Shown one piece after another: positions 1 to 184 of a DNA stretch of 46,393 bases. The DNA comes from Clostridia bacterium (lineage in GTDB: Bacteria > Bacillota > Clostridia > Christensenellales > DTU072), in NCBI GenBank assembly GCA_017533505.1, contig JAFXIB010000098.1, positions 1 through 46,393 on the forward strand, written 5' to 3'. The notes under the pieces were generated by a model. The model searched no databases, was not told the DNA's origin, and saw only the letters and a list, made by a program, of their open reading frames with translations. Positions within the stretch are counted from its first letter, which is position 1; the number at the start of each line of letters is the position of its first letter. The position numbers and the translations under genes were made by a program.

Positions 1-57
1 GTAAACGACCGAGTGGGTTTTTGTATTTTGTGAAGTAATTTATCGAATTAGTTCGCG
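1..57. repeat. Long-hairpin intergenic element, right half of a copy cut by the window edge
   Basis: Bases 1-22, GTAAACGACCGAGTGGGTTTTT, equal the 3' half of the conserved apical module seen at 127-146, 3297-3318 and 21004-21025. A related right arm follows (GTATTTTGTGAAG...). Confidence 0.7.
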
Positions 58-184
58 ATAAAACGCGTTAGTTTGGATGAAGAACGAACAAAAAAAGAAA
101 ATCCACGACGGGACTTTACTTATGCGTAAACGACCGAGTGGATTTTGTGTTTTGTGAAGTTGTTCGCCAAAATAACGCGTTTTA
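58..184. repeat. Long-hairpin intergenic element, complete copy, in tandem with the copy at 1-57
   Basis: The outer arms AAAACGCGTTAGTTTGG and CCAAAATAACGCGTTTT are inverted repeats. The apical hairpin at 97-146 is AAAATCCAC-GACGGGACTTTAC..GTAAACGACCGA-GTGGATTTT. The right end (TTTTAG) contains the stop codon of the 182..1645 gene. Confidence 0.8.

Follow-up and report, generated by a model that had tools for sequence, protein, structure and literature searches.

Hairpin repeats that start on stop codons in gut Clostridia, a candidate family of mobile, terminator-like elements

Small hairpin repeats are common in bacteria, and their site choice and the agents that move them are mostly unknown. 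Among the described families, REPINs are randomly placed in extragenic space (PMC3116915). SPRITE, a repeat of Streptococcus pneumoniae that resembles a Rho-independent terminator, is weakly oriented, with an orientation that mirrors coding bias (63%), and does not contain the stop codon (PMC3049150). Repeats of the ERIC/IRU type insert in both orientations and at variable distances from genes. Meanwhile, the attC sites of integrons are strictly polar with respect to the ORF that they follow.

Here, we describe a family of hairpin elements in which the choice of site is unusually sharp. These elements start on the stop codon itself, in a single orientation and at TAA or TAG alone, and their turnover is visible between strains. 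They were analysed in a window of 46,393 nt (the whole stretch of DNA under study, contig JAFXIB010000098.1 of a Clostridia bacterium), in related genomes, and in metagenomic and viral contigs.

Elements of the window

The window has a G+C content of ~41% and carries housekeeping genes, which lie mostly on the minus strand in its element-holding half. We refer to the strand of the elements that reads TAAAACGCGYTAGTTTRGATG..., which is the plus strand of the window, as E+, and to its complement, which is the mRNA sense of the upstream gene, as E-. Three complete hairpins of ~128 nt were identified, together with four partial or decayed copies (Table 1), and a covariance-model scan of the window run without filters revealed just these copies above noise. 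All six sites named by the sequence-only reading were present, with coordinates that agreed to within 1-3 nt. The type-C remnant was absent from that list; it displays a different apex type and was recognised through a sister strain. The 13-nt core CGACGGGACTTTA had four exact occurrences in the window, against 0.35 expected. One further match to the core (45169-45181, minus strand, one mismatch) had no hairpin at its site and was set aside as a chance match.

Table 1 Elements and adjoining genes of the window. Fold energies are for RNA of the plus strand (E+), and z-scores are relative to dinucleotide shuffles
Feature	Positions	Strand	Basis and remarks
3' part (apex 3' half and 3' arm) of a further type-A element	1-57	+	Repeat families D2 and D5; truncated at the edge of the window
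Complete type-A hairpin element	58-184	+	Fold -53 kcal/mol, z -9.5; covariance model 130.9 bits
DUF1846-family gene, stop codon inside element	182-1645	-	ORF list; Pfam PF08903 and PF20921
Distal half (in mRNA sense) of a type-C element, left as a remnant	3176-3221	+	Comparison with L039 (99% identical GuaA, full type C at the site)
Complete type-A hairpin element	3229-3356	+	Fold -49.3 kcal/mol, z -7.5; covariance model 131.6 bits
guaA (GMP synthase, 425-aa form typical of the clade)	3354-4646	-	Pfam; homologues
Decayed type-A element, apex kept, arms non-complementary, no abutting stop	17530-17653	+	Covariance model 44.4 bits; identical in L013
Orphan 3' arm (half element), downstream of the rpsR element in mRNA sense	20849-20890	+	Repeat family D2; sequence
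Complete type-A element, outer stem GTAAGAAGAG / CTCTTCTTAC	20935-21062	+	Fold -56.1 kcal/mol, z -10.5; covariance model 139.9 bits
rpsR (ribosomal protein S18), last gene of the rpsF-ssb-rpsR group	21059-21358	-	Pfam PF01084; ssb upstream

Each complete copy folds as one long hairpin, as that reading had described, with z-scores from -7.5 to -10.5, and the minus strand of these three copies folds too. The copy that had been called degenerate (17543-17664) retained its apex, and its fold was no better than those of shuffles (z 0.1 and -1.3). The placement of the elements against the stop codons of minus-strand genes also held, with the last three bases of the elements serving as stop codons. 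Bases 182-184 (TTA) of the first complete element are the TAA stop of the DUF1846 gene and are paired within the hairpin, bases 3354-3356 are the TAA stop of guaA, and bases 21059-21061 are the TAA stop of rpsR. The DUF1846 gene is followed by an array, and the partial copy at the start of the window is its second unit.

Other features of the window deserve mention in their own right. The GMP synthase is just 421-425 aa long throughout the clade, with a much shortened glutamine amidotransferase part (window 3354-4646, homologues P0001-P0120); the guaA of the window is not a broken gene. Positions 43279-46393 hold a tRNA-Ser (43279-43370) followed by a 500-aa ORF with weak ACT and metallo-beta-lactamase matches and no significant stretch, and G+C content falls to 31% between 44 and 46 kb; this region may be foreign or non-coding DNA. 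Finally, a 186-nt direct repeat (27183-27368 and 27432-27617, 74% identical) lies inside a 697-aa ORF without a Pfam match (26126-28219), and it is probably a repeated protein domain.

Dispersal and turnover in related Clostridia

An exact-pattern scan with the core, run on one genome per species, detected 38 loci, all of them from eight assemblies, which represent Candidatus Stercoripulliclostridium and related Clostridia of the goat and sheep gut. Contig ends held many of these loci, as expected for repeats. A covariance model trained on 34 copies then raised the count to ~86 elements in 303 kb from the eight assemblies, so that the search of related genomes proposed by the sequence-only reading did recover further copies. 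JAFQOO and JAZSLG are examples of genomes rich in elements, and GCA_965353945.1 is an example of a close relative that had none in the regions covered. These copies are related by descent, and the counts are thus not independent events. Most of the sequences are also metagenome-assembled, and some mosaic copies may be chimeras.

The elements are ~128 bp long, are extragenic in all cases, and number tens per genome. Near-identical copies were found after unrelated genes, both within one genome and between species. The flanking genes are housekeeping genes with conserved synteny, among them guaA, rpsR, DUF1846, and groEL-like and rplQ-like genes. Three interchangeable apex types occur on common arms, namely type A (CGACGGGACTTTAC..GTAAACGACCGAG), type B (CGACGGGAGT(T/G)TAC..GTA(A/C)ATGACCGAG), and type C (GGGGTTGCTGTAC..GTACTGCGCCCC). 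Tandem arrays are frequent, with a period of ~153 nt and a conserved linker.

Some members of the family depart from this plan. An element of 167 nt (L021:1947-2113) has ~36 extra bases in its apical region, which indicates that the apex tolerates insertions. Two mosaic copies (L007:1788-1918 and L019:764-898) combine arms from different subfamilies and have lost their pairing; these could be real recombinants or assembly chimeras. In addition, a second repeat family adjoins the hairpin arrays in 11 loci (L002, L005, L006, L011, L012, L015, L016, L029, L032, L034, and L038). It is made of runs of the GCGGAAY heptamer and a motif resembling CCTTGTGAGCG (e.g., L006:160-250 and L038:6400-6740), and it is absent from the window.

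Orthologous sites displayed different states in close relatives. Downstream of guaA, the window carries a type-A element and the distal half of a type-C element, while L039, with a GuaA 99% identical to that of the window, carries a full type-C element and nothing else. The remnant in the window is, as the two sequences suggest, what was left after a type-A element replaced the gene-proximal half of type C. At 93% GuaA identity, one relative (L040) is empty, with a 32-nt spacer, and another (L049, with the same synteny over 21 kb) has no element and possibly a decayed trace. Four contigs at 84% identity (L041-L044) have a canonical terminator at this site, and relatives with an 80% identical GuaA had no element in 80 kb. 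The arrays after the DUF1846 gene differ among the same four contigs, whose GuaA proteins are identical. At rpsR, elements were found in three species (window, L005, and L017) with outer stems that are different yet internally complementary, and the flanks of this site are 88-92% identical between L005 and L017 despite the different stems. These filled, empty, and swapped sites between near-identical strains suggest that the elements move or are replaced quickly.

At the empty sites (L040, L049, and L160-L163) the flanks are diverged or replaced. No target-site duplication was visible in the comparisons of filled and empty sites, and the base that follows the 3' TA differs from the stop-codon third base that would be expected. 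Gene order was also seen to shift beside the elements relative to positions 1-4700 of the window, with the DUF1846 gene inverted in L040 and a radical-SAM gene missing in L041-L044, and these shifts may result from recombination between repeats.

Gene ends, hairpin structure, and distant relatives

The orientation of the elements followed that of the genes without exception in this genus. The upstream gene is on the strand opposite to E+ in 45 of 45 gene-proximal copies. Long ORFs (95-1708 codons) that run antisense to E+ and end at its 3' end were present at all 35 gene-proximal copies inspected for them, and no long ORF ended at the E+ 5' end of any of these 35. Folding of the sequence that begins with the stop codon gave 42 usable cases; pairing of the long hairpin began at the T of the stop in 31 of these and 1-2 nt later in seven more. 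The stops linked to elements were TAA (32) and TAG (12), with no genuine TGA. Since TGA ends 11% of the long ORFs in the fetched loci, the chance of finding none among 44 is ~0.006. The whole element is an imperfect inverted repeat with termini TA(A/G)...(T/C)TA, and TAG stops accompany the subfamilies with ends TAGAC...GTCTA, so that the stop codon belongs to the inverted repeat. In convergent gene pairs (L002, L006, and L016) each gene has its own element, so orientation follows transcription and not replication. Random insertion at TA followed by selection does not explain an orientation of 45 to 0.

The sites that the elements occupy are those where terminators are otherwise found. In relatives that lack an element, canonical terminators follow DUF1846 (L049 and L040) and guaA (L041-L044). 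The element-free genes in the scanned part of the window likewise have canonical terminators (e.g., 31949-31968, 25008-25038, 24759-24782, and 17693-17723). Meanwhile, a scan of positions 1-4000 detected no terminator-like site after DUF1846 or guaA, and by eye no simple hairpin followed by a T run was found after the guaA and rpsR elements. The main subfamily, AAAACGCG...CGCGTTTT(T)A, displays an A tract, a GC-rich stem base, and U4-5, and it is as rich in T as canonical terminators in these genomes. A U tract is lacking in the subfamilies that end in GTCTAC or GTCTTAC, which include the rpsR copy (20935-21062), and a terminator role is therefore not general. Furthermore, the guaA element stands between two genes that are separated by 32 nt in a relative, and strong termination at this site would cut the second gene off.

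The hairpins are maintained by compensated changes. A basal stem of 12-13 continuous pairs is followed by a single mismatch. The conserved arms read TAGTTKRGATG on one side and TATTTTRGCG on the other, and the mid-arms vary yet stay paired. In a structure-blind MAFFT alignment, 95.5% of cells were paired, against 83.2% in shuffles, and 155 cells held double changes, against 49 in shuffles; slid controls gave 36-47% pairing. The differences between arms are thus compensatory, as had been read from the window, although template switching at quasi-palindromes could add to this pattern without selection on structure. The G-versus-T difference that had been noticed in the arms turned out to be a G.A mismatch on the plus strand. 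This mismatch, a bulged A, and a U.G pair are invariant on E+ in 34 of 34 aligned type-A copies. A conserved peptide encoded by the invariant GATG was considered and rejected, as reading frames differ among the few copies that were translated by hand.

The two strands are not equivalent. On E+, the A and B apexes contain tandem G.A + G.U, and the non-canonical features are stabilising, while on E- they are pyrimidine mismatches. Of 74 unique copies, 71 have E+ as the better-folding strand, with a mean gain of 6-11 kcal/mol (RNA parameters); with DNA parameters this holds for 72 of 74, and the same bias was found in nearly all distant relatives. Since E- is the mRNA sense, the better hairpin lies on the template strand, which is odd if an RNA hairpin in the mRNA is the point of the element. 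Neither the flanks of the three complete copies in the window nor the linkers of the arrays displayed anything promoter-like upstream of E+.

Related hairpins were detected outside these Clostridia. A metagenome scan with the arm pattern gave 110 matches, most of them due to chance as the information content of the pattern predicts, and eight real long hairpins of the same architecture. One of these (L116) belongs to Margulisbacteria by its MreB. Its element starts on the TAG stop of mreB and is antisense to the gene as in the window, and the site is empty in relatives with an 87-90% identical MreB. Another element (L059) abuts the stop codon of a gene whose C-terminus (...KPDHYRY) we take to resemble that of adenosylhomocysteinase. 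A scan of viral contigs with the type-A core gave no matches. With the B-type apex, the viral scan revealed long hairpins in Mu-like phage contigs, between portal and F-like genes, and in other phage contigs, in one case immediately 5' of a capsid gene. The apex GGGAGUKUA..UAMAUGACC tops long hairpins in both the Margulisbacteria contig and the phage contigs. As these distant matches were found through patterns, conservation of the pattern follows from how they were selected, which does not apply to the long hairpin, the second module, or the stop-codon position. In several distant relatives (L151, L167, L190, and L191) E+ runs in the same sense as the flanking genes, so the polarity rule is firm just for the family with the arm type. 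When a second model, trained on diverse members, was run over 1.47 Mb, it added no copies outside the pattern sites, which suggests that the class is scattered and not ubiquitous.

Among the phage contigs, those of high G+C content carry a related ~130-nt hairpin (L165:6655-6785, L179:2386-2516, L181:7768-7898, and L217:4267-4397). In L179 it lies between a Mu-type portal gene and a Mu F-like gene, and the stop of the portal ORF is 12 nt inside the hairpin. A 403-codon ORF likewise ends 12 nt inside the hairpin of L217, and L165 and L181 have near-identical flanking ORFs. On the contig of one distant relative, a separate inverted repeat of 189 nt was observed (L151:5175-5363; 47-nt arms, 87% complementary).

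Candidate explanations and relation to known repeats

Based on these findings, we postulate that the elements are mobile, terminator-like, non-autonomous hairpin repeats of the REPIN, BIME, or MITE kind, which are specific to this lineage and colonise the position immediately 3' of coding sequences. We consider this reading slightly better than an even bet, with a probability of roughly 0.55. It draws on the dispersal of the elements, their presence, absence, and exchange between close strains, their tandem arrays, their decay to halves, their compensated hairpins, and their strict polarity. Two candidates of the sequence-only reading, both supported, meet here. The REP/MITE-like mobile hairpin agrees with a dispersed repeat of fast turnover, and the 3'-UTR or terminator module agrees with the position, where terminators sit. 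These are not alternatives, as the element is a dispersed repeat that occupies terminator positions. For the third candidate of that reading, a protein-binding DNA cruciform, the analysis gave evidence in neither direction.

Under the mobile-repeat reading, propagation would require a folded single strand, of either DNA or RNA, since just the copies with intact hairpins appear to have multiplied. Insertion or replacement would be directional and aimed at a stop codon that begins with TA. The mRNA of the upstream gene would then carry an element in place at its 3' end. In the main subfamily, its ~60-bp hairpin and U4-5 could act as an intrinsic-terminator-like 3'-end structure that replaces the ordinary terminator, and an mRNA hairpin of this length would be a likely substrate of RNase III. 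Against this reading, the annotated genes of the window and of the fetched clade loci included no transposase, RAYT, or other candidate mobilising gene, the window itself held no mobile-element genes, and no long autonomous version with arm pairs enclosing a gene was found in L001-L044 and the window.

It is scarcely credible that the elements arose from ordinary intrinsic terminators by lengthening in situ and are alike through shared constraints without ever having moved. Such an origin would fit their terminator positions and the A tract, GC-rich stem base, and U tract of the main subfamily, but near-identical 128-nt copies stand after unrelated genes within and between species, and strains whose flanking proteins are 93-100% identical differ in having the site filled, empty, or replaced. 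The conserved linkers of the tandem arrays and the conservation of the apex across phyla argue in the same direction. A further explanation is that the functional molecule is a structured E+ RNA, be it a small RNA (antisense or independent) or a module that binds protein, and that the copies are genes or cis-elements and not selfish DNA. The better folding of E+, which extends to nearly all distant relatives, the conserved non-Watson-Crick features that are purine-rich or wobble on E+ alone, the recurrence of the apex in Margulisbacteria and phage contigs, and the distant copies with E+ in gene sense are all consistent with such an RNA. However, E+ is always antisense to the sole abutting gene in this genus, the inspected flanks and linkers are devoid of promoter-like sequence, no Rfam family was matched, and the copy number, arrays, halves, and presence or absence between strains resemble those of repeats rather than genes; we thus regard an RNA function as quite improbable.

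It is also unlikely, in our view, that the elements are sites for a strand-specific enzyme of single-stranded DNA, such as an integron-type tyrosine recombinase, an HUH/Y1 transposase of the IS200/IS605-RAYT type, or a reverse transcriptase acting through a cDNA hairpin, with E+ as the active strand and a polarity that is mechanistic, e.g., through transcription-coupled insertion. The conserved mismatch and bulge positions make the strands asymmetric in the way that such enzymes use for strand choice, orientation tracks transcription and not replication at the convergent pairs, and the variable parts keep the hairpin and not the sequence. At the one comparable site, moreover, the newer element is beside the stop and the older part is distal, which resembles ordered addition. 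Against this stand the absence of attC core sites, of an unpaired central spacer, and of a REP unit with GTAG and a short palindrome, as well as flanking genes that are housekeeping genes and not cassettes. Neither a recombinase nor a Y1 transposase nor a reverse transcriptase was seen near any copy in the fetched loci.

A broader proposal, possible but doubtful, is that the mobile repeats of this genus belong to an undescribed, scattered class of ~125-nt hairpins present in Bacillota, Margulisbacteria, and Mu-like and other phage contigs, which is functional as folded E+ with its tandem G.A + G.U cap and which in this genus is a mobile element that seeks stop codons. If true, this would mean either a new transcription-coupled or single-strand insertion process, possibly mediated by cDNA, that recognises TAA and TAG stops, or a new protein-binding RNA or DNA module that can be spread by mobile DNA. 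We see about one chance in five that something mechanistically new lies behind the targeting of stop codons and the bias towards E+.

The polarity of the elements matters under either of its causes. If it is mechanistic, it would point to an insertion process coupled to the termination of transcription or translation. If it is selective, it would mean that a mobile hairpin can take over the terminator job for housekeeping genes such as rpsR and guaA. The apex motif common to another phylum and to phages hints at a conserved partner molecule. On the practical side, these repeats break short-read assemblies of gut genomes of this group, and they could be used as strain markers.

The sequence-only reading had recognised no described RNA family, and Rfam 15 bore this out. 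The elements had no match at the gathering threshold or at an E-value ≤10, and in the window, searched with E-values up to 10, the best sub-threshold match had 19.9 bits against a threshold of 211. BLASTN of the element against plasmids and phage genomes gave no match, and no literature on repeats in this genus was found. Integron attC sites, Cas9 repeat/anti-repeat pairs, Y RNA, SRP RNA, single-stranded DNA origins, and the NusG pause motif were dropped as identities of the element on inspection of the sequence.

In terms of architecture, attC sites, e.g., the ~125-bp repeats of Vibrio cholerae, are similar to the elements in that they are imperfect hairpins of 57-141 nt placed directly after an ORF, often with its stop codon (PMC8876359 and general knowledge). 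They share with the elements a strict ORF polarity, a structure that is conserved more than its sequence, and conserved extrahelical or mismatched bases. The functional folded strand of attC is the complement of the mRNA, as is E+, the better-folding strand of the elements. The RYYYAAC and GTTRRRY core sites and the unpaired central spacer of attC are nevertheless lacking here, the arrays have no intervening ORFs, the neighbours are not cassettes, and no integrase was seen. ERIC/IRU (127 bp), YPAL, Correia, RUP, and bcr1 repeats are alike in being 100-170 bp long, with the whole element forming one hairpin and TA at both ends, and in residing in transcribed intergenic regions, where such hairpins are RNase III substrates that change mRNA stability (PMC2759123 and general knowledge). 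Their sequence, however, is conserved throughout and is not modular, and a TA duplication is documented for several of these families, while none was demonstrable for the elements.

Among repeats at gene ends that resemble terminators, SPRITE is the closest Firmicute precedent. It is an interspersed repeat of Firmicutes with AAAA/TTTT ends and a hairpin followed by U-rich sequence, it is enriched near gene 3' ends and suspected to be a terminator, and neither a target duplication nor a transposase is known for it (PMC3049150). It differs in having an 18-bp duplex with a long U-rich tail in place of the ~60-bp hairpin, no modular apex, and no arrays (PMC3049150). The nearest known kind of element is the REPIN. 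REPINs, or REP-BIMEs, which are mobilised by RAYT (TnpA-REP) transposases, likewise have two conserved, imperfectly inverted ends and a less conserved spacer that compensation keeps as a long hairpin (PMC3116915, PMC8266576). Their RAYT is a Y1 transposase encoded by a single-copy gene that REPs usually flank. Like the elements, they occur in tens of copies per genome, extragenically and in tandem clusters, with a lineage-specific sequence and no transposase of their own. In contrast to REPINs, the alignments of the elements display no short GC-rich REP palindrome with a 5' GTAG and no internal palindrome in the arms, and the apex is as conserved as the ends. The elements are also strictly polar and start on the stop codon, unlike the random placement of REPINs (PMC3116915).
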